Virus record (IMG/VR): IMGVR_UViG_2778261180_000005
DNA from: a virus
Taxonomy: Duplodnaviria; Heunggongvirae; Uroviricota; Caudoviricetes
Strand: one strand, 5' to 3'
DNA length: 36,121 nt
Made by a program: the position numbers and the translations under genes. Of the stretch, positions 961-21,522 are shown in pieces (position 1 is the first letter of the stretch; the number at the start of each line of letters is the position of its first letter). The notes under the pieces were generated by a model. The model was not told the DNA's origin. It was given only the letters and a program-made list of their open reading frames with translations, and made no database searches.

Positions 961-1000
961 GCCCCTATCGTTATAATACGCGGTAGGGGCGTTTTTGTTT
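961..1000 (+). terminator. rho-independent terminator
   Basis: GCCCCTA(961-967)/TAGGGGC(984-990) stem followed by TTTTTGTTT. Confidence 0.7.
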
Positions 1001-1009
1001 GGAAATGGT

Positions 1010-2689
1010 ATGAAAACTAAACTGTATTCGTATATTCGCTTCTCGTCTATGAAGCAAGCGGATGGTAGTTCTTATGAACGCCAGAAGAGAACAGCCGCAG
1101 AGATAGCCGCAAAATATGATCTTGAGCTAGTTACAAGCTATCAGGATTTTGGTGTATCTGCATTCAAAGGGGCTAACAGTAGAACAGGTGCACTATCTCG
1201 CTTTCTGGATGAGATTGGTCGATCCGTTCCGGTTGGTAGCTGGCTGGTTGTGGAAAACTTAGACCGTATCTCTCGCCAATCCATCATTGAAGCACAAGAG
1301 CTATTTCTCTCGATTATCCGTAGGGGAATAACTATCGTAACTGGCATGGATGGTAAGGTCTATAGCAAGGAATCGGTTAATGCCAATCCTATTGATTTGC
1401 TGTTGAGTGTCATGTTGTTTGCGAGAGCTAACGAGGAAAGTCAGACTAAGCGCAATCGTACTAACTCAAGCGCATTGATTAAGATTAAAGCTCATCAAGA
1501 AAATCCACAAAATCCGGCTGTTGCAATCGAGGAAATTGGAAAGAATATGTGGTGGACTGATACCACATCTGGTTATGTGCTTCCTCATCCGGTCTTCTTC
1601 CCTATTGTTCAGGAAGTTGTGGAATTACGCAGGAATGGACGGTCAACCGCCGAGATACTGGATCACCTTAACGCGACATACACACCACCACCAGCCGCAA
1701 GTCACAAGAGGCATTCAAACTGGTCACGGGCAATGATTGAAAGGTTGTTCCATACCCGCGCTTTGATTGGTATCAAGGAAATCTCTGTAGATGGCGTTAA
1801 GTATGAGTTAAAGGATTATTATCCTCGTGTGCTAGATGACGCTGAGTTTTATCACCTTAAGAAAAGCATTGGTGTTAGAGCATGTAACTATGGAGACAAG
1901 GAAGAAGTTAAACCTATTCCCTTGCTTAGTGGTGTTGGTCTATTGAAATGTGAACATTGCGGTTCCGCTATGGTTAAGGTGAAAGGAACTAACAAACGTC
2001 CTAACCAATATCGTTATTCATGCGATGCAATGCGCTCTAGTCGTATTGCATGTGTGCATACAAACTGGAGTTTTCGAGGTGATCAATTAGAGAAAGCTGT
2101 ATTGCAATTGCTGGCTGATAAAATCTGGATTGCTGAGGATAAGGCTAATCCGGTTCCGGCTTTGAAAGTACAGATTGATGAAATATCACGCAAGATTGAT
2201 AACCTGATTACCCTTTCTGCTATGACAGGAGCAACGAAGGAGCTAGCCGATCAGATTACTACCCTCAATAGCGAGCGTGAAACACTCTACAATCAAATTA
2301 AGATGGCAGAAGAGGAAATGTATTCTGTTGACTCTCAAGGCTGGGAGAAGCTCGCAGAATTTGATTTAGAAGATGTTTACAACGAGGATCGCATTAAGGT
2401 CCGGTTTAAGATTAAGCAAGCTCTAAAACGGATCGGGTGTAGCAGGATTGACAAGTACAAAAACTTGTTTGTACTGGAATACATCGATGGCAAGACCCAG
2501 AGAGTTGTAATAGAAAATTCAAGAGGACCGAGGAAAGGCCGGATCTTCGTTGATTTGAAAACTATCAATGATAGACAGATTCTGGAAAGTAACGGGCTTG
2601 TTTTGCATCCATGTTTAGACATGCTGACAGATAAGAACTGGAAACCAGAAGAGGAAATACCAGGTCCATTACAGGAATTTGGAATTTAA
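1010..2689 (+). CDS. large serine recombinase (integrase-type), 559 aa
   Basis: N-terminal resolvase-like catalytic region (YIRFSSMKQ..SYERQ); central recombinase domain; Cys-rich zinc-ribbon (CEHCGSAMVKV...YSCDAMRSSRIACVH); C-terminal coiled coil. ATG at 1010 preferred over the TTG at 995. Confidence 0.85.
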   Translation: MKTKLYSYIRFSSMKQADGSSYERQKRTAAEIAAKYDLELVTSYQDFGVSAFKGANSRTGALSRFLDEIGRSVPVGSWLVVENLDRISRQSIIEAQELFLSIIRRGITIVTGMDGKVYSKESVNANPIDLLLSVMLFARANEESQTKRNRTNSSALIKIKAHQENPQNPAVAIEEIGKNMWWTDTTSGYVLPHPVFFPIVQEVVELRRNGRSTAEILDHLNATYTPPPAASHKRHSNWSRAMIERLFHTRALIGIKEISVDGVKYELKDYYPRVLDDAEFYHLKKSIGVRACNYGDKEEVKPIPLLSGVGLLKCEHCGSAMVKVKGTNKRPNQYRYSCDAMRSSRIACVHTNWSFRGDQLEKAVLQLLADKIWIAEDKANPVPALKVQIDEISRKIDNLITLSAMTGATKELADQITTLNSERETLYNQIKMAEEEMYSVDSQGWEKLAEFDLEDVYNEDRIKVRFKIKQALKRIGCSRIDKYKNLFVLEYIDGKTQRVVIENSRGPRKGRIFVDLKTINDRQILESNGLVLHPCLDMLTDKNWKPEEEIPGPLQEFGI

Positions 2690-2762: not shown

Positions 2763-3761
2763 TTAGAGAGCCTCTAAAGGGCTTAAATCGAGTTCTAAGT
2801 TTTCCGGTGTTAAATCAGCTAACGGTGCATTCATCCACTGCGATAAATCTCGTTCTATGTCTTCATCACTAATGTAGTTGTTCAGATTGATTGCGTTGGT
2901 ATCATCAAAATACATTGGCTTAGATGGGTTGGTGTGGATGTATTCATTGATGAATGATTTAACATCTTTCAGCTTGCTAATCGGTAGCGTTTCTGTGAAT
3001 CCGCTATTCATTACCTTACGTGGGATTTTCTTGCCCTGAATATTCTTTTTAATCCCCATTTCTAAATCACCAGCTTTCCATCCAATGTTAAACAAATGTG
3101 AGCATTCAAAGGTGATTTTCTCGCTGGTGTGCTTCTGGTGTTCTCTTACCCGTTGCATCGGATCTTTGCGAGTGGTAATTCCATATTTGAAAAACTTCTC
3201 GCCAACACGAATTAGATAAAAGTGCATAGGGCGCTGTGCAAACTTGTTTCTGATAACCTGTTTTCTACCATTCTGAATTGATTTAAGTACACCCCTAACC
3301 AAAGGGCATGTTAACCCGCCTTGTCTGCGGTTATTGTGTAAATCACCTTTCTTGTGAATCTTTCCGTGGCACTTACAACGAAGAATTAGTTTAGTGTCAA
3401 CACCCTGATAAGGTTCAGCCAGACCTAACACATCCCACCCTATCGGCTTGTAGAACTTGCGAGCGTTTTCTAAGTGTTCTTCTTCGGTAAATCTAAACTT
3501 CTTCTTAGGCGGTGATACTCTATCTTTGCCAGTAAACTGACCAGTTAGAACATGACTAATACATGGCGTTTTAACCTTTCCGTTAACTTCTATGCAAACT
3601 TTGGTGTTCTGGAATGGTTTCTTTACAGGAAGCACAAAACCACTGTATAACCATCCATGCGCTTGACAAACTTTAATGATTCTGGTTTCATATTCGACCG
3701 GAGGGGTCGCACGTTTGCTTTTTGCGGTAAATTCGATATCCTTTGCTAAAGTAGTATTCAT
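2763..3761 (-). CDS. Zn-finger plus T5orf172/GIY-YIG-like domain protein (homing-endonuclease-like), 332 aa
   Basis: Start moved to ATG at 3761 (SD GAGGA 7 nt upstream); CxxC..CxxC-type cluster (CKCHGK..TCPLV) followed by FYLIRVGEKFFKYGITTRKDPMQRVREH. Confidence 0.65.
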   Translation of the reverse strand: MNTTLAKDIEFTAKSKRATPPVEYETRIIKVCQAHGWLYSGFVLPVKKPFQNTKVCIEVNGKVKTPCISHVLTGQFTGKDRVSPPKKKFRFTEEEHLENARKFYKPIGWDVLGLAEPYQGVDTKLILRCKCHGKIHKKGDLHNNRRQGGLTCPLVRGVLKSIQNGRKQVIRNKFAQRPMHFYLIRVGEKFFKYGITTRKDPMQRVREHQKHTSEKITFECSHLFNIGWKAGDLEMGIKKNIQGKKIPRKVMNSGFTETLPISKLKDVKSFINEYIHTNPSKPMYFDDTNAINLNNYISDEDIERDLSQWMNAPLADLTPENLELDLSPLEAL

Positions 3762-3796
3762 ATTAGTGTCCTCGAAAATAATAAGTTCACTACTAT

Positions 3797-4249
3797 TTAT
3801 TGAGAAAAATTTGTTGTAATGGTTGAAGACCACGGGCATGAGTAGTAACCACGACCGCCACCGATCAAGCAAATGGTCGGACGGAAGCCAGTAAGATCGC
3901 AAAATGAATCAGTGTCATGTGCTGGGGAACGATGCTCTGCTTCGTTAGAGAAAATGTTGGCTACCGGAGATTCCACTTTAACTTCCGGTGCTTCTTCAAC
4001 ATCTGACTTAACTTCTTCGACCACTGGTTCAACTGCCGGAGATTCTTCTTTTGTTTCTTCAATGACGATCTCAGGTTCTTTCATTGCTTCAACCAGAGAC
4101 GGATCAACTTCGTCGAATACCACTTTATCATCTGCGGTGTCTGCTGCCAGAATAAGATCGTTAATACTGGTTCCTTCTGCCGGAGTTTCTTCTTCCATTT
4201 CGGAAGCCAGTTTAGTTAATTCGGTTTCTACGAACTCGATCATCAACAT
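3797..4249 (-). CDS. acidic hypothetical protein (150 aa)
   Basis: Glu/Asp-rich ORF; the opposite-strand ORF 3873..4277 is Ser/Thr-rich as expected for an antisense artefact; weak RBS. Confidence 0.4.
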   Translation of the reverse strand: MLMIEFVETELTKLASEMEEETPAEGTSINDLILAADTADDKVVFDEVDPSLVEAMKEPEIVIEETKEESPAVEPVVEEVKSDVEEAPEVKVESPVANIFSNEAEHRSPAHDTDSFCDLTGFRPTICLIGGGRGYYSCPWSSTITTNFSQ

Positions 4250-4289
4250 TAAAGGTAATGCCTATAAGATAAATTAAGTGAGGTTTTTT

Positions 4290-4871
4290 ATGATGAATGA
4301 TGTGCGCAAAGCATGTGATATCCCGTTCAATTTTATCCGCACCAAAAATGGCAAAGCGCCATCACATCCAATTGATATGGAAGCAAGGATCGTGACCCGT
4401 ATTGAAAACGAGGGTTTACCCTTGATTTATCACGGATTCAAAGGTGAGTATAAATCAATCAATAGCCGTATTGTGCTAGAGTGTGAAAGCTGCGCAAGAA
4501 TCAGAGATATAACAGCAAAACAATTCTTACATAATCCTACTGTGTGCCCGTGTAATCGTAGCAAATATGACAACAAATATAAAAATGGGCAACCAGTATT
4601 ATATGTTATGCGGTGTGGTGATGTGGGTAAGGTTGGAGTAAGTCACAATGTGTTGACGAGAAAACATAAGCTAAGATGCCAGAATAAGATGAAATTTGAT
4701 ATCATCGAGACTTTCGAATTTCAAGACGAAAAAGACGCATACGCGGCAGAATTGTTTATCAAGAAAAACCTAGTAAAAGGTGATTTTGATATTAAAGAAG
4801 GTGCTACAGAAACGTTTGTTTATAATGAAAAAATGGTCAGAAATATAGCTAACGTCGCCAGCATATTCTAA
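4290..4871 (+). CDS. Zn-finger plus T5orf172/GIY-YIG-like domain protein, paralog of 2763..3761 (193 aa)
   Basis: ATG at 4290 with AGTGAGG SD; CESC..CPC cluster followed by LYVMRCGDVGKVGVSHNVLTRKHKL. Confidence 0.65.
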   Translation: MMNDVRKACDIPFNFIRTKNGKAPSHPIDMEARIVTRIENEGLPLIYHGFKGEYKSINSRIVLECESCARIRDITAKQFLHNPTVCPCNRSKYDNKYKNGQPVLYVMRCGDVGKVGVSHNVLTRKHKLRCQNKMKFDIIETFEFQDEKDAYAAELFIKKNLVKGDFDIKEGATETFVYNEKMVRNIANVASIF

Positions 4872-5651: not shown

Positions 5652-6335
5652 TTAAACGTATTTCATGCGCGATTTAATGTGCTTATTGATGTTTTCAAGC
5701 ATCATTGCTTCGTTGCTTTCCCACGATCCTAGCGTCGAATAACGAGTAGAAATTTTATCCGATTTAACGGCAACAATTCGCTTACTCTGTTTCTGTATGC
5801 GTTTCTCTAAGCGACGTTTTGCCACCGCCGATCCATTCTTAGCGCGTTTGGTTCGGGATTTCTTAGGCTTGTACTTCTTCATGATAAAAGTCCCTTCCTT
5901 GTTCTCTACCTTGATGAAGTTGCCATTTTCGATGTTACGCATCATCTTACCGCCTTTGATGGCCTTAATGTTCCCGTGGGAGTCTAAGACCTTGCCGTTA
6001 GCGATTGGAACTAGCTTATTGATTTTGCCACCATCGAAATAGTGTTTCAAATAGTCGTCCTGACTTCCGATCTTCTTGTCCTTATCCCTTGCGCCCTTGA
6101 TGAAGATTTGGTGTCTGGTCCCTGATCGGTTCTTGTAGTTGGTATTACCTACAGCTTGCTGAGTCCAGCGAGTAGGTCTATCAACATTCTTGTTAATCTT
6201 CTTCTGGAGTGCTCTGGAAGCAAAGATCGCCCCTTCCCCTATCGCCCTTTCGAATGTATCGGTTGCCTTTTCAGACCATTGCCGTAACGCTTTCTTAGTC
6301 CTTAGAGCGTTTCGTTTATTGGTACTGGTTGCCAT
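5652..6335 (-). CDS. basic hypothetical protein (227 aa)
   Basis: Lys/Arg-rich ORF; AGGGGG SD; start overlaps the stop of the upstream small gene (TAACATG). Confidence 0.6.
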   Translation of the reverse strand: MATSTNKRNALRTKKALRQWSEKATDTFERAIGEGAIFASRALQKKINKNVDRPTRWTQQAVGNTNYKNRSGTRHQIFIKGARDKDKKIGSQDDYLKHYFDGGKINKLVPIANGKVLDSHGNIKAIKGGKMMRNIENGNFIKVENKEGTFIMKKYKPKKSRTKRAKNGSAVAKRRLEKRIQKQSKRIVAVKSDKISTRYSTLGSWESNEAMMLENINKHIKSRMKYV

Positions 6336-15619: not shown

Positions 15620-16093
15620 TTAGACGACTTTCTGGAAAACAGCTTGTTTAACCGGAGCACCATCTACTACAAAGGTGAAGGTACGGCCTACTACAGCATC
15701 CTCACCACCAGTCATGGTAGTTTTAGACAGGAAGCCGTTATAAGCGATATGTACACCAGATTTTTTCGTAGCATCGATGTAGTAAGCAATTTTAAGCTGT
15801 ACGCGCTTACCGTCTTCGGTTGCTTTAATCAGTTTTTCGTGTACTTCGTTACCCGGCATGTAGTTGATCGAAAGTTCGATATCCGGTACAGACATACGAC
15901 CAACCAGCTTACGGTTATAAGCACCAGAGAAGTTAGGAACATCGATCGTAGAACGTTCTACACCAGTTTCCGGGAACGCTGCGCATTCTGGGATTTCCAG
16001 ATAGGTTTCAGCATCAAGGTCTTTATTGCTTACGTCTTCTTGCAGAAACAGACCAACGAGGCCACCAGAGAAAATATCAAATTTAGTAGTCAT
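15620..16093 (-). CDS. major tail (tube) protein (157 aa)
   Basis: Immediately upstream of the G/T chaperones; AAGGAAAAG SD; followed by its own terminator. Confidence 0.7.
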   Translation of the reverse strand: MTTKFDIFSGGLVGLFLQEDVSNKDLDAETYLEIPECAAFPETGVERSTIDVPNFSGAYNRKLVGRMSVPDIELSINYMPGNEVHEKLIKATEDGKRVQLKIAYYIDATKKSGVHIAYNGFLSKTTMTGGEDAVVGRTFTFVVDGAPVKQAVFQKVV

Positions 16094-16147: not shown

Positions 16148-16450
16148 TTAGCGGTTGCTCAAACGTCTATAACGAAGATGAGCGACCCCCCTATTTGTGC
16201 TAACGGTAATTACCGCCCCTTGCGGTGCAATACAAGAATGGATCTGTCCCCAATCATGCCCCTTATGGCTTCCAGAAACACAAAAACCATGAATAAACAA
16301 TTCAGAGTCACCGCCGCCACCACCGGAAGAATGAGCACAGAATGAAATAGTCCCGAAAGCGTCGGCTGTCCAACCGTTAGGAATATCAAACCATCCTTGA
16401 TTTGCTTTACCCGCCCTATTCCCCAAAGCGCCATCTACCCAAAATGCCAT
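16148..16450 (-). CDS. small Gly-rich protein, paralog 3 (FDIPNGW family)
   Basis: One of three tandem paralogs sharing M.xW...FDIPNGW...G-rich...(Y/H)FKF; start overlaps the upstream stop. Confidence 0.6.
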   Translation of the reverse strand: MAFWVDGALGNRAGKANQGWFDIPNGWTADAFGTISFCAHSSGGGGGDSELFIHGFCVSGSHKGHDWGQIHSCIAPQGAVITVSTNRGVAHLRYRRLSNR

Positions 16451-16755
16451 TAGTGCATTCTCCTGAATTTGAAATAATGCAATCCACCTTTACCCAATGT
16501 AAAGCTAACGGTAGCACCAGCGCCAACTAAAGAACTAGCGCCCCAACTTCCGGCATTACCAGCGTGATGACCTGATTCAATCAATCCATTTACAGCCAAT
16601 TCAGAATCAAGATCACCAGCACCGTTAATGGCTTCCATATGAGCAAAAACAATTCCGCATGAATCAGTGACCCAACCGTTGGGGATATCAAAATATCCAC
16701 CATTAGCCCAAATACTAATAGCGTTTGACATTCTTTGATTTATCCATCCAGCCAT
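16450..16755 (-). CDS. small Gly-rich protein, paralog 2 (FDIPNGW family)
   Basis: Tandem paralog, tightly packed with its neighbours. Confidence 0.6.
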   Translation of the reverse strand: MAGWINQRMSNAISIWANGGYFDIPNGWVTDSCGIVFAHMEAINGAGDLDSELAVNGLIESGHHAGNAGSWGASSLVGAGATVSFTLGKGGLHYFKFRRMH

Positions 16756-16757
16756 AA

Positions 16758-17054
16758 TTAAAACTCCATGAATTTAAAATATTCAACACCACCTTCACCC
16801 CCTAAACCAAAGGAGACGGTGCAGCCAGCAGGAACAAACGAATTTATAGTAGATCCCCAATTGGACCCACCACGACGACGAGCAACGGTCAAACCATCTA
16901 CGTTAATATGTGCATCAGACCATCCACCACCAGCATTATGACGCATGACAGCAACGCCAGCGCGAGCAGTACCATAGCCGTTAGGAATATCAAATACATG
17001 CCATTTTAAAGCATCGATTTTAGTATTAATTTCACTACTTACCCAATATCCCAT
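16758..17054 (-). CDS. small Gly-rich protein, paralog 1 (FDIPNGY family)
   Basis: Tandem paralog; AAGGA SD; preceded on the mRNA by hairpin GCGGGGA..TCCCCGC (17068..17085). Confidence 0.6.
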   Translation of the reverse strand: MGYWVSSEINTKIDALKWHVFDIPNGYGTARAGVAVMRHNAGGGWSDAHINVDGLTVARRRGGSNWGSTINSFVPAGCTVSFGLGGEGGVEYFKFMEF

Positions 17055-17091
17055 ATAAGAATCCTTAGCGGGGATTTCTCCCCGCTTCCAA

Positions 17092-20000
17092 TTACCCTAA
17101 TTTAGCTTCAATTGCAGCAAGACGTTCACGAAGAAGTTTATTTTCTTCGCTCATTTCTTGGACCGCTTTAATTAAAAGCGCGTTCACTGCGGAGTTTGAA
17201 ATTGTTAAAATTTCTTCTGGGTTATCAAGAGATCCGACATTAGAAGTGCTAACAGCTTCCGGTAAAATTTCTTGTAAATCCTGTGCGATAATACCAATCT
17301 CATGTGCGATGACTTCTCTGTCAGAAAGAGACTTAACTTTATCGTAGGTTTTAACTTTTAGTTTATTTACCTTATCTACCGCATTTTCTTCGTAGTCTTC
17401 AACGTTAATTTTCAGACGACGGTCGGAACGAATATAAACATCGTTACAGTAAACCGACGCACTAGATGTGAAATCACCATTTGCAGCCCATGAATACCAG
17501 CCGCCTTTGTTCATATGCATCATTACGGTAGCTTGACCACCGCCAGCATGAACACCCATTGCCGCAAGATGATCAACACCCCAATGAGTTGCTTTCCAAA
17601 TTGAATATGCTTGGGTATGTGAATCCTGACAATCTAAGAGAATACCAGCAGGACGGTTGCGCCAGTCATCCCATGCACCACCAGAAACCTCACCACGGAT
17701 AAGAGCGTATTCACCATTATATGGAACACGTTCTCCCGCTTTAATCATTGCACCCTGGAAGTGATGACTAAATGAACCCCCATGATTATTTCGTATATGT
17801 AAAATACCATCATCTGTAGCCCAGATAACAGCCTTTTCCGATTCGCTGTCATCTCTAAACCAGATATGGCGTGCACCAGTTGAGTTTTTGATGGTTATTC
17901 CGGTAGGTCCATGCACGGTCAAAGCACCAGCTACATCAAATAAAACGGTGTTATCTGTTCTACGTTCAGTATAGAAGTGATAACCTTTGGAATCGCCGAT
18001 TTCCATTACTGCCGCGCGTCCAACTTCTGAATTTCCCCAATTGTTGATAGAGAATCGTTCAGAGCTATTATTCATCTGATTTAGGTATAATGTACCGTCA
18101 GTGAATGTTTCGCCAAAGAATCTAGTTTTAATGCTATTGGTTCCGGTGCGTTCAAATTCGGCTAAAAATCCTTTTGAGTCACGAAGACTTAAAACGTTAT
18201 TTCGACCTGTATTGCTTGCCCCCCAATGGACGAGTTCCATATAGTCCATAGATTGACGAGAACCAGATTTAAATAAAAGGTTGTCTTCGAGACGAGTGCT
18301 ACCATCAATTCCCAGGTGCAAACAACGAGCGGTTTCAGTACCACCTAAATATAGTCCACCATCATCAAAATTATAGCTGAATGGTCTGCGATTATTCCAA
18401 CTACCAAAAGAATCTTTTAAATTGGTAGTAAGAATATGGAAGCTAGAACCGTCATTGCGTAACATCAAACCATAGTTACCGCCTTTAACAGCCAAACGAG
18501 CATTTTCAGATAATGCAACTTCGCTATTCATTACAATTTTCTGGCCTTTACCACCAGTAATATGTAATTCACCGTCTTCGATCAAATTTATCGAGTTTTG
18601 ACCGTTATCGTTCCACCAAATAAAATCTTTGGTCGTCAAATCACCAAAACCAAACCAGCCATTACGAACATCTTGACCAGTGCGATAATCCATAAAATTA
18701 AAATGGCTTGCTTCGTTTGGTCCTCGACGAATATCAATACCAGCATTAGAACCGGAACCTAAGCCACCATCGATGGTCAATCTACGAATATGCAAACCGG
18801 TTACAGCCGAAAGCAATAATTGTTGGGTTACATCGGTATATCCAGTAGCAAGACGATAATTTTGGTCATCAACACTTTCGTGCCAGATAGTGGCAGGAGC
18901 AGAACTACGGAAGCGACGCAACATCTTTTTAGCATTTGTCGGTTGTTCGTTCATATGCTCAATGTCGTATTGGCCTTGATGGTTTCCAGCAAAATTTAAC
19001 GTTCCACGGTTGCTAAAGTTATTGAACGATGAAATGTTAAGAGCATCAAAAATTTCATCTGCAACAGGTTTTTCACCACCCAGATATTCAGGAGTATCCA
19101 ACAGGTTTAAAGAAACACCACCGGAAGAAACTTGATATTCTGCTAAAACAAATCCTGTATGTGCACCGTAGTAAGCGTAAAGATCGTAATTATCACCATC
19201 GGTTGGAATAGCGCAAAAATGTTGTTCATAATGCCAAATAGTATAATACGCATTGAATACAACACCTTTCGGGCTATTGTTGCCGCATCGAATCACCAAT
19301 TCGATAATATTGGCTTGTCCATTCATCCCGACGTTATAACCGTTACCACCAACCAAACGGATCTTAGCGGTGCGACCGTGTTGCTGTGGCATTGTCAAAG
19401 TGCCTAGTTTAAACCAACCACCCTCGATCCCAAAATTAAGCGTCTTCTGGAACAGTCGGTCAATTTCTGCTTTCGAATATGCGCCAATTTCAGCCGGAGT
19501 AGGTTTATCGCCTTCATGATACATGCGGTGAGAATATGACAAGTTACCCAATTCATCGTAGCCGTATGTTCTTACCGTATGAACCGGATTAGACCCATAA
19601 GTGAACTCAAAGCCACGAGCATGATTAACACCAGATGGATGCGGAACATGCAAGATCATTGCAATATGACCCGCCAGGTCATTCATGCGGAATGCACCAA
19701 AGTAGTCAAGATTACGCGCACTCGGATCATCAAAATAGTTTGCGGTCTTAGACAACAAATAACCATCAGTATAAGTGTTTACGTGTTTTTTGATGTACTT
19801 GCCATCACTCGATCCGTCGGCTGCATCAATACGGCTTTCTAAGCGTGCCAGTTCAGAATCAGTGTAAGACTTGTTATTGTCAACTTTGCTATGAATTGCT
19901 GAATTTTTGGCTTCAACATCACGGGTTAATGCTGCGACGTTATCCGCTGCCTCTTGCTTATTAGCCGCAATCACACCAGTAAGGTTATTGTAGGTGTCAG

Positions 20001-20613
20001 TTAACTGATTTTCCGCATAGACTTTATTTGCTGCGATAGTGCGGTCAGTTTCTGTCTTAATCAGATCAACTTTGTCATTGATTGCTTTGTCATTACTTGC
20101 GATTGTCGCGTCGGTACGGGATTTAATATCATCAACTTTTTTATTGATGCGGGTGTCCAGTTCCTGAGTTGCTACAGCAGCCGCATTTTTATTAGCGTTG
20201 ATGGTATCCGACAATTCAGCTTTAACACCAGCAAGATCGGAAGCAGCTTTATTTTTATTAGCTTCGATTGTCGCGTCGGTTTCGCGTTTAATTACATCAA
20301 CTTTATTGTTAATTTCTGCATGATTTGCTGCGATAGTAGAATCAGTAGTTTGTTTAATTTCATCTACTTTAGCGTGAATATTGCGGTCATTTACTGCAAT
20401 TGTGCTATCCAATTCTTGTTTGTTAGCATCAACTTTAGATTCTAGTGCCGCGTGAGTTTCAGGAGAAACAGAGATTTGAACTACTTCATGATCTCGGTCT
20501 TTGGTAAAAATAACATGGTCTTTAAGGTTGATTGCCACCTCACCGACCTGTAATTGTTCCGGCGTTGGCTTTTTGCCAGAAACATTAGTTCGTTTAAATT
20601 GGATTGATTGCAT
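17092..20613 (-). CDS. side tail fibre with C-terminal intramolecular chaperone (peptidase S74-like) domain, 1173 aa
   Basis: N-terminus KPTPEQLQVGEVAINLKD; about six ~22-aa repeats (KVDxIKxxTDxTIxAN); C-terminus SDRRLKINVEDYE...GIIAQDLQEILPEAV typical of autocleaving fibre chaperone domains; GAGGTGA SD. Confidence 0.85.
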   Translation of the reverse strand: MQSIQFKRTNVSGKKPTPEQLQVGEVAINLKDHVIFTKDRDHEVVQISVSPETHAALESKVDANKQELDSTIAVNDRNIHAKVDEIKQTTDSTIAANHAEINNKVDVIKRETDATIEANKNKAASDLAGVKAELSDTINANKNAAAVATQELDTRINKKVDDIKSRTDATIASNDKAINDKVDLIKTETDRTIAANKVYAENQLTDTYNNLTGVIAANKQEAADNVAALTRDVEAKNSAIHSKVDNNKSYTDSELARLESRIDAADGSSDGKYIKKHVNTYTDGYLLSKTANYFDDPSARNLDYFGAFRMNDLAGHIAMILHVPHPSGVNHARGFEFTYGSNPVHTVRTYGYDELGNLSYSHRMYHEGDKPTPAEIGAYSKAEIDRLFQKTLNFGIEGGWFKLGTLTMPQQHGRTAKIRLVGGNGYNVGMNGQANIIELVIRCGNNSPKGVVFNAYYTIWHYEQHFCAIPTDGDNYDLYAYYGAHTGFVLAEYQVSSGGVSLNLLDTPEYLGGEKPVADEIFDALNISSFNNFSNRGTLNFAGNHQGQYDIEHMNEQPTNAKKMLRRFRSSAPATIWHESVDDQNYRLATGYTDVTQQLLLSAVTGLHIRRLTIDGGLGSGSNAGIDIRRGPNEASHFNFMDYRTGQDVRNGWFGFGDLTTKDFIWWNDNGQNSINLIEDGELHITGGKGQKIVMNSEVALSENARLAVKGGNYGLMLRNDGSSFHILTTNLKDSFGSWNNRRPFSYNFDDGGLYLGGTETARCLHLGIDGSTRLEDNLLFKSGSRQSMDYMELVHWGASNTGRNNVLSLRDSKGFLAEFERTGTNSIKTRFFGETFTDGTLYLNQMNNSSERFSINNWGNSEVGRAAVMEIGDSKGYHFYTERRTDNTVLFDVAGALTVHGPTGITIKNSTGARHIWFRDDSESEKAVIWATDDGILHIRNNHGGSFSHHFQGAMIKAGERVPYNGEYALIRGEVSGGAWDDWRNRPAGILLDCQDSHTQAYSIWKATHWGVDHLAAMGVHAGGGQATVMMHMNKGGWYSWAANGDFTSSASVYCNDVYIRSDRRLKINVEDYEENAVDKVNKLKVKTYDKVKSLSDREVIAHEIGIIAQDLQEILPEAVSTSNVGSLDNPEEILTISNSAVNALLIKAVQEMSEENKLLRERLAAIEAKLG
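20010..20470 (-). repeat. in-frame tandem coding repeats within the side-fibre gene
   Basis: Recurrent DNA blocks (such as CGATTGTCGCGTCGGT...ATCAACTTT) encoding the KVDxIK..TDxTIxAN repeats; coordinates approximate. Confidence 0.6.
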
Positions 20614-20688: not shown

Positions 20689-21522
20689 CTAGAACTCACC
20701 GAAGTCGATCCGGTCATGGATAGAAACGGCTTCAATCTCGGCTGGTGTCGGTTTTTCTTCTGTGGAATACACTTTCACCCATCCCGAATTACCGTCTTTC
20801 TGGACTGTGCGAACTCGTAAACGTGGTGCGCCGGAAGCGGTGCAAGTTAATTGCCATCCACCATCTTCATTAGGTTGAACGTGAATTAGTGAAGTATCAG
20901 CACTAAATGGATTAGATGCGCTCGATCCCTGATAAGTTACGAAACGGTTTCCGGCTAATGCTTCACTATCAATCGGACCAGTGAATGGATGTACACCAGC
21001 ACCAATACCAAAATCACCTTGTCGCAGAATTTTTCCCTCGGTCGCTATACCCCTTGCTAGAATCCCGCCATCTGGTTCAAGTTTAAATTCCAGTGTTACA
21101 GCTTTGTTATCACTACCACGGGTTTTATGTGATGTGACGTAAGCATCATAGATGACATAGTAACCAGTGTTAGCAGCACTATAGCCAGAGTTCACAACAT
21201 AGAACATACGGAAGCGTAAAGGTGTTTTATCCTCTACCGCTTTCATCAACATTGCTTGATGTTCGTCATCCAGAACACGGTTTAACGTGAGTGTCGTCGG
21301 TTCCAGTTTACGATAACCAGCAAGTTTCCCCGTAGCGTCCTGATCATACTCTTCTAACGTCTGGATATCTGTAGATTCGGTTATCGTCGGGAATGCTGCG
21401 ATGTTCTCGATAGGACTAAATGCAGGATCGAAAAAGTCCGGCTGGTTATCCACCATAGTAGACACGGAGACTTCAACATGCGACCCCGTGAAAATGTCTA
21501 AGTTATCTTGTGTAATATTCAT
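20689..21522 (-). CDS. structural protein (277 aa), possibly fibre-associated
   Basis: AAGGGG SD; C-terminal EEKPTPAEIEAVS shares the KPTPAEI motif with the side fibre (DKPTPAEIGAYS). Confidence 0.55.
   Translation of the reverse strand: MNITQDNLDIFTGSHVEVSVSTMVDNQPDFFDPAFSPIENIAAFPTITESTDIQTLEEYDQDATGKLAGYRKLEPTTLTLNRVLDDEHQAMLMKAVEDKTPLRFRMFYVVNSGYSAANTGYYVIYDAYVTSHKTRGSDNKAVTLEFKLEPDGGILARGIATEGKILRQGDFGIGAGVHPFTGPIDSEALAGNRFVTYQGSSASNPFSADTSLIHVQPNEDGGWQLTCTASGAPRLRVRTVQKDGNSGWVKVYSTEEKPTPAEIEAVSIHDRIDFGEF

Follow-up and report, generated by a model that had tools for sequence, protein, structure and literature searches.

What do three similar genes of about 100 codons each contribute when they are packed directly behind a phage fibre gene? 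The question is raised by a 36,121-nucleotide stretch of DNA from a virus of the Caudoviricetes (IMG/VR record IMGVR_UViG_2778261180_000005), which we refer to at its full length as the window, and which is a siphovirus-type E. coli prophage. In an attempt to answer it, we describe here which genes make up the set, how well conserved and how constantly ordered they are, the fold predicted for them, the genomic slot that they occupy and their exchange as a cassette. The three genes are a genuine and conserved module, not characterised before, that is tied to S74-type fibres and interchangeable with the adhesin gene gp38; the model that we favour for the module, a heterotrimeric cap adhesin on the fibre tip, is well motivated but unproven.

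All three open reading frames are on the minus strand, where a preliminary description of this DNA had placed three paralogous genes. Gene A (16758..17054; 98 aa) would encode the first subunit, gene B (16450..16755; 101 aa, with an N-terminal extension of 10-30 aa in other lineages) the second, and gene C (16148..16450; 100 aa) the third. Each is preceded by a Shine-Dalgarno sequence. The stop/start overlaps that had been reported hold for B and C, where the stop codon of B and the start of C share 1 nt (TAATG), but not for A and B, which are 2 nt apart, so that there is a true overlap at one junction only. Pairwise BLASTP (A-B, 2.6e-13; A-C, 1.5e-8; B-C, 3.3e-14) indicates paralogy far above chance as judged from the protein sequences. 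The common MxxW, FDIPNG and glycine features were likewise recovered, with M1, W4, FDIPNG and several Gly residues invariant and Gly contents of ~17% in each protein. The (Y/H)FKF ending that had been ascribed to all three proteins was found in A and B, which terminate in a YFKF motif (...YFKFMEF at the C-terminal end of A), but not in C, which has HLRY there. The pI values range from 6.1 to 8.6, and we found no signal peptide, lipobox or transmembrane/hydrophobic segment in A, B or C (maximum KD19 0.9).

The gene directly upstream of A-B-C (17092..20613, minus strand) encodes a gp37-like side/long tail fibre of 1173 aa, which matches the PHROG for the long tail fibre distal subunit (E=1e-132) and contains the Pfam domains Gp34_trimer and Peptidase_S74. 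This agrees with the earlier view that the neighbouring fibre carries a self-cleaving chaperone domain, cleavage itself being predicted. The C-terminal S74 intramolecular chaperone domain (17095..17427, minus strand; PF13884, E=2.4e-14, aa 1063-1121) begins at Ser1063 in a YIR/SD motif and carries the conserved S74 Ser-Asp...Lys cleavage motif (...NDVYIR/SDRRLK, with the slash at the cleavage site); the domain is predicted to be auto-cleaved off. Immediately before it is the last fibre domain (17428..17736, minus strand; ~aa 960-1062), which we propose as the docking platform for a cap. The C-terminal part of the fibre is homologous to the S16 gp37 construct of PDB 6F45 (E=1.3e-9), and an NDVYIR-like end right before the cleavage Ser-Asp could be aligned in all fibres that precede either the triple or gp38. 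Downstream of C we found a tail tube gene (15620-16093, minus strand; 157 aa; PHROG major tail protein) and, after it, a strong intrinsic terminator in a terminator scan (15611-15592, minus strand). The fibre, A, B, C and tube genes are likely co-transcribed as one unit. This prophage also encodes a serine integrase, terminase, portal, protease-capsid fusion, tape measure and J-like central fibre, and among 5426 complete E. coli genomes, 55 have relatives of its fibre region.

Two further features of this region were observed. A hairpin with a 7-bp GC-rich stem and a GAAA loop, read from the sequence, lies between the fibre stop codon and gene A (17068..17085, minus strand). It was not scored as a terminator in a simple terminator scan because it has no T-run, and at the corresponding position in phage G2248 the annotation gives a putative terminator; we infer that the hairpin may have a role at this junction. 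In addition, the 277-aa product of 20689-21522 (minus strand), upstream of the fibre gene, matches the major-tail-protein PHROG phrog_158, as does the tube protein of 15620-16093 (minus strand), and the fibre and triple therefore form a cassette between two tube-like genes. The fibre and triple of Salmonella prophages L024 and L025 are likewise found between two tube-like genes.

The preliminary description did not recognise the family, and our searches were consistent with this. A, B and C had no matches in Pfam (E<0.1), PHROGs, NCBIfam or PADLOC and no sequence homologue in the PDB, where matches to designed Pizza proteins were judged spurious. A word-seeded search of 5.8 billion proteins returned 35 clusters, the named members of which come from E. 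coli, Shigella and Salmonella and are all annotated as hypothetical, while an exhaustive profile search of 1.84 billion representative proteins returned ~15 genuine clusters, all of 97-131 aa. Much longer profile matches (1118-3591 aa, with many matched stretches) were treated as repeat or compositional artefacts; four of them, when scanned against Pfam, proved unrelated, containing ankyrin repeats, HYR domains, DUF4347 or no family. One long-protein match without a Pfam family (P0056, E=8.7e-4) had the look of a jelly roll by eye. A scan of genome contigs for relatives was negative. The full triple is present in 22 complete E. coli genomes, in two allele groups, and in 3 of 50,697 phage records (Krischvirus G37-3, G2248 and UPWr_E1), as compared with 615 phage records for gp38. 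Literature searches found no description of the A-B-C module; Korf et al. (2019) reported that some new gp37 sequences resemble neither T4 nor S16 gp37 (PMC6563267).

We then considered how constant the set is. Loci were gathered from annotated phages and E. coli chromosomes, IMG/VR contigs and contigs of the most divergent members, and members were counted by applying a family HMM to six-frame ORFs. The ~20 complete loci, meaning those not cut by a contig end, each had three members and no more, always ordered A-B-C, with junctions of at most 4 nt and a constant layout in which the fibre ORF is followed by genes of ~98 aa, 101-125 aa and 98-110 aa. Three annotated genes lie under the full-length match in 22/22 E. 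coli genomes, and in one Salmonella locus the third gene is uncalled in the annotation, yet present. Wherever the C-terminus of the upstream fibre was on the contig, it consisted of an S74 domain. The carriers comprise siphovirus-type prophages of E. coli and Salmonella, T4-like Krischvirus myoviruses and one metagenomic contig with a T7-type fibre (615 aa, with a Phage_T7_tail N-terminus). Incomplete sets occurred only as remnants or as a frameshifted copy (KFS-EC, TO6, ETEC4085 and L012). In the last of these, an IMG/VR contig, B is interrupted (5983-6219), leaving an ORF of 79 aa, and the locus has one base more than its siblings, which may represent either a frameshift pseudogene or a sequencing error.

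When all proteins were compared with one another, the nearest neighbour was the same-position protein of another locus in 30/30 cases. Mean identity within a position was 46% for A, 40% for B and 48% for C, as compared with 24-30% between positions, which indicates that the triplication is old and fixed and predates all known members. Between the two E. coli allele groups, dN/dS was 0.23 for A, 0.16 for B and 0.10 for C; all three genes are thus protein-coding and under purifying selection, and this comparison of two alleles gave no sign of diversifying selection. The earlier suggestion that the triple reflects tandem diversification typical of host-range determinants is not borne out by these data, as recent tandem diversification or positive selection is ruled out by the ancient position-specific orthology of a set that is always three, together with the dN/dS values.

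Single structures were also predicted, as the preliminary description had suggested. AlphaFold2 models built with family alignments (pLDDT 85.1 for A and 84.7 for B) begin with an N-terminal helix of low confidence and continue as a beta-sandwich of seven to eight strands that is modelled with confidence, and the predicted jelly roll can be superimposed on gC1q or TNF domains. Matches in a viral structure library (BFVD) include phage C1q-domain proteins, collagen-repeat proteins and tail-fibre C-termini. At the level of the fold, A/B/C are thus modelled as small C1q/TNF-like jelly rolls, with no Pfam match at E<0.1 to C1q (PF00386) or TNF (PF00229). The heads formed by C1q, collagen NC1, BclA and TNF domains are trimers, and in C1q itself three paralogous chains (A, B and C) from clustered genes make up a heterotrimer. 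Using the alternation of antiparallel strands, we assigned the loops of the models to two poles. Loops 21-33 (FDIPNGW), 56-57 and 78-81 make up a conserved pole with an entropy of ~1.2 bits and no indels, and the chain termini should be located at this pole in the models. Loops 42-48, 66-69 and 88-90 make up a variable pole with an entropy of ~2.0-2.2 bits, and it is here that nearly all internal indels and the majority of the Gly-rich segments are located.

The genomic position of the triple in virulent phages bears on its function. Gene order is gp37 - A - B - C - small ORF - holin in the Krischvirus phages G37-3, G2248 and UPWr_E1, and gp37 - gp38 - holin in IME340; the Krischvirus triple occupies the classical gp38 position, between gp37 and the holin gene. 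G37-3 is a T4-like phage isolated on E. coli that has A-B-C but no detectable gp38: tblastn over 98% of its genome found no gp38 homologue, and no further members of the family were found beyond the triple in the same 98%. In other phages, fibre tips of its type have gp38 behind them. No gp38 was found in the window either. Residues 827-1158 of the window fibre are nearly identical to gp37 of Tequatrovirus IME340, with one residue of difference in the last domain before the cleavage site and few in this domain and the S74 domain together, and the homology stops within the last ~15 codons, where triple-associated fibres end in ...EENKLLRERLAAIEAKLG and gp38-associated fibres in ...EEIKELKTPFFTKIARKISKYFKF. 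A tip that is paired with gp38 in other phages is thus paired with A-B-C in the window.

The sibling E. coli prophages TO6 and ETEC4085 carry gp38 (in TO6, PF05268 1e-69 and PF21721 6e-19) together with a remnant of C at the same site. The remnant is the C-terminal part of paralogue C, about half to two thirds of it (L002 2646-2858, a 70-aa ORF, in TO6; L031 2290-2622 in ETEC4085). In TO6 the first nine residues of the remnant ORF (MVYNIIIGA) match the N-terminus (MVYNIVIGA) of the small Krischvirus ORF, which sits between the gp38 slot and the holin gene. This is a scar left by recombination when one cassette replaced the other, and the TO6 remnant marks the right-hand junction of the exchange. 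It was also observed that B of the virulent Krischvirus G2248 (L022 5001-5306) has 100% protein identity to that of a temperate-phage IMG/VR contig (L011 6001-6306), with A 98% identical and different distal fibre tip domains; near-identical A and B behind different tips indicate that virulent and temperate phages have recently exchanged the cassette. The gp38 slot, the swap against gp38 and the IME340-like tip strengthen the tie to the fibre that had been proposed, and fibre-tip adhesin, one of the roles then considered, is the best reading of the locus. A possible resemblance of the A/B/C N-termini (MxxW...) to the three W-repeats of the gp38 attachment domain was also considered and rejected, as a PSSM made from the A/B/C N-termini did not pick out the repeats of the gp38 N-domain and placed the W9 site only sixth, at 2.4 bits, which is not significant; the resemblance is loose.

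Pairing with a tip does not imply pairing with one particular tip. Among IMG/VR prophages, one triple allele (B 97-98% identical) was found behind three unrelated penultimate tip domains, which rules out that the triple co-varies with one specific tip domain; docking, if any, must use the short conserved fibre end before the cleavage site. Since gp38 is likewise found behind differing tips (TO6-type in TO6 and EC416-type in ETEC4085), tip independence is no specific argument against a cap. There are also loci without an intact module. In E. coli EC416, an S74 fibre with a different tip domain is separated by only 88 bp from the tail tube gene (L003 2592-2679), with neither the triple nor gp38 between them, so that not every prophage of this lineage carries the module. 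In KFS-EC (L030, MH560358), the only ORF between gp37 and the small pre-holin ORF encodes a 107-aa A/C chimera (2618-2941), in which A (residues 1-89) is joined to a fragment of C within a Gly-rich stretch, after which the sequence is truncated. The chimera is a decayed triple, and KFS-EC was isolated on a host. The KFS-EC fibre tip is of the EC416 type, and the two loci together indicate that the module is dispensable for this type of tip, barring a gp38 elsewhere in the genome.

The gp38 slot and the predicted C1q/TNF-like fold suggest that A-B-C is probably an undescribed three-subunit cap that sets host attachment. In favour of a cap we counted the fixed set of three, the link to S74 fibres, the gp38 slot, the shared docking platform, the head-like fold, the polarity of the loops, the absence of a signal peptide or transmembrane segment and the dN/dS values; against it we counted the three tip types, the EC416 and KFS-EC fibres, the non-significance of the W-repeats and the lack of diversifying selection. 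On balance, we consider it an evenly poised proposition that A, B and C make up a 1:1:1 heterotrimeric cap adhesin on the fibre tip, the complex, its docking, its presence in the virion and its binding of a receptor all being putative. The more specific statement, that A-B-C is an asymmetric heterotrimeric C1q-like head on a freshly cleaved S74-type fibre end and a portable receptor-binding module, is put forward tentatively. According to this scheme, each subunit would be a compact C1q/TNF-like jelly roll behind a short N-terminal helix. The fibre would trimerise and its C-terminal S74 chaperone domain would cleave itself off, the A/B/C complex would dock on the exposed three-fold tip via the conserved pole and the three N-terminal helices, and the variable Gly-rich pole would face outward and bind the host receptor. 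Because the penultimate tip domain can differ, the module may be called portable; it would be interchangeable with gp38 and common to a podovirus-type fibre, siphovirus-type prophages and myoviruses, and to virulent and temperate phages alike.

In this role, the module would do the work that the monomeric adhesin gp38 (PF05268 and PF21721; PDB 6F45) does in T2/T6/S16-type phages, as an analogue and not a homologue, and it is swapped against gp38 as a cassette between virulent T4-like and temperate phages. Like the triple, gp38 is separately encoded after an S74-ending gp37, and it has the same slot (gp37/holin), the same fibre tip and Gly-rich variable loops. However, gp38 is a single monomer of 260 aa, in which an N-terminal attachment domain is combined with a polyglycine-II sandwich, whereas the triple consists of three predicted jelly rolls of ~100 aa, with no sequence similarity to gp38 found by Pfam or PSSM; gp38 is also common and the triple rare. 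The other likeness is to C1q/TNF heads (C1q A/B/C, collagen VIII/X NC1, adiponectin, BclA and phage C1q-domain fibre ends), which end trimeric fibres. The A/B/C domain has ~80 residues as compared with ~130 in these heads, and A/B/C are free-standing proteins that would form a putative trimer, and are not fused to a collagen or fibre stalk. That the conserved, translationally coupled paralogues number exactly three lends such a trimer indirect support. We know of no described phage fibre tip that is made of three different, separately encoded subunits.

Alternatively, A, B and C may be cytoplasmic assembly or maturation factors for S74-type fibres that are absent from the virion, in the manner of T4 gp38, Tfa or Pam3 gp25, and might act in folding, S74 cleavage or tip stabilisation; we rank this first among the alternatives, ahead of three alternative adhesins and of unrelated cargo, and regard it as unlikely, though still a serious rival. 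Like Tfa (of lambda, Mu and P2), T4 gp38 and Pam3 gp25, with which they may be compared in this respect, A/B/C are small proteins, also soluble, and their genes immediately follow the fibre gene, where fibre chaperones are usually encoded. Their link is always to the S74 domain and not to one tip domain, some fibres of the same type manage without them, and purifying selection without hypervariability would suit a housekeeping helper. TfaMu is reported to stay bound to the fibre tip. Pam3 gp25 and TfaMu also consist of a beta-sandwich and a helix and work as trimers (PMC9608196), but the domain order is reversed in A/B/C, where the helix comes first, and A/B/C are three different genes whereas Tfa-type chaperones are encoded by one. 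Each Tfa-type chaperone is reported to bind its own fibre at the distal tip (PMC9608196), whereas the module is not tip-specific. S74 fibres, including the partner fibre of the window, already have an intramolecular chaperone of their own, and A/B/C had no match to a chaperone family in Pfam, PHROGs or NCBIfam. Furthermore, the module is exchanged against a structural adhesin, gp38, and not against a chaperone; G37-3 was isolated on E. coli with a gp38-type tip and no detectable gp38; and the C1q/TNF-like fold, with its single variable pole, is typical of terminal heads.

It is also conceivable that each paralogue is a separate adhesin, acting as a monomer or homotrimer and competing with the other two for one tip, such that a phage population would display three receptor specificities. 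This is consistent with gp38 being a single separately encoded protein that caps such a tip, with the ability of C1q-like domains to homotrimerise and with the paralogues differing most in the loops of the variable pole. Under this alternative, however, the number and order of the genes would be expected to vary between phages, and what we observed was always three genes in a fixed order, with position-specific orthology that extends to ~25-40% identity and no locus in which an intact subset was retained. The tight translational coupling of the genes further suggests equimolar synthesis. Position-specific orthology and the retention of three copies are what one would expect of three non-equivalent subunits of one complex, and the pattern fits this better than it fits three alternative adhesins, which we consider improbable. 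Least probable by far, in our opinion, is that A/B/C are cargo for superinfection exclusion, receptor masking or anti-defence that travels with fibre 3′ ends: although such genes often adjoin receptor-binding genes (e.g., T5 llp and T1 cor) and the family is without annotated relatives, the proteins have no signal peptide, lipobox, membrane segment or PADLOC match, the module is located within late structural operons ahead of the tail tube gene and terminator, it is kept in strictly virulent T4-like phages at the gp38 slot, and its predicted fold is that of fibre heads.

Receptor-binding tips decide the host range of phages and are the main target for the engineering of therapeutic phages and for genome-based receptor prediction, and the gp38 adhesin is the paradigm of a separately encoded tip protein. 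If the cap model is true, the same fibre tips would have a second kind of cap, unrelated to gp38 and different in structure, which would widen this paradigm and would explain the host attachment of gp38-less phages such as G37-3. In the heterotrimeric head, complement C1q would also have a parallel among bacterial viruses, and the compact three-gene cassette could be swapped for fibre retargeting. Models for receptor prediction depend on recognised receptor-binding proteins (10.64898/2026.04.02.716166), a blind spot that the module would help to fill.

Elsewhere in the window, two observations concern the prophage itself. A large serine recombinase-type integrase is encoded at the prophage end (995-2689, plus strand; phrog_95, E=9e-57). 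A stretch of 415 bp (3829-4243, within an ORF at 3797-4249 on the minus strand) has 99.5% identity to T4-like inh ("inhibitor of prohead protease"), carriers of which among T4-like phages include kvi, FL04 and KFS-EC. The inh-like ORF is flanked by two ORFs (2763-3902, minus strand, and 4278-4871, plus strand) that both match the endonuclease phrog_681. The inh-like stretch has the look of DNA acquired from a T-even phage very recently, and a homing-type endonuclease, split or duplicated, may be connected with the transfer.
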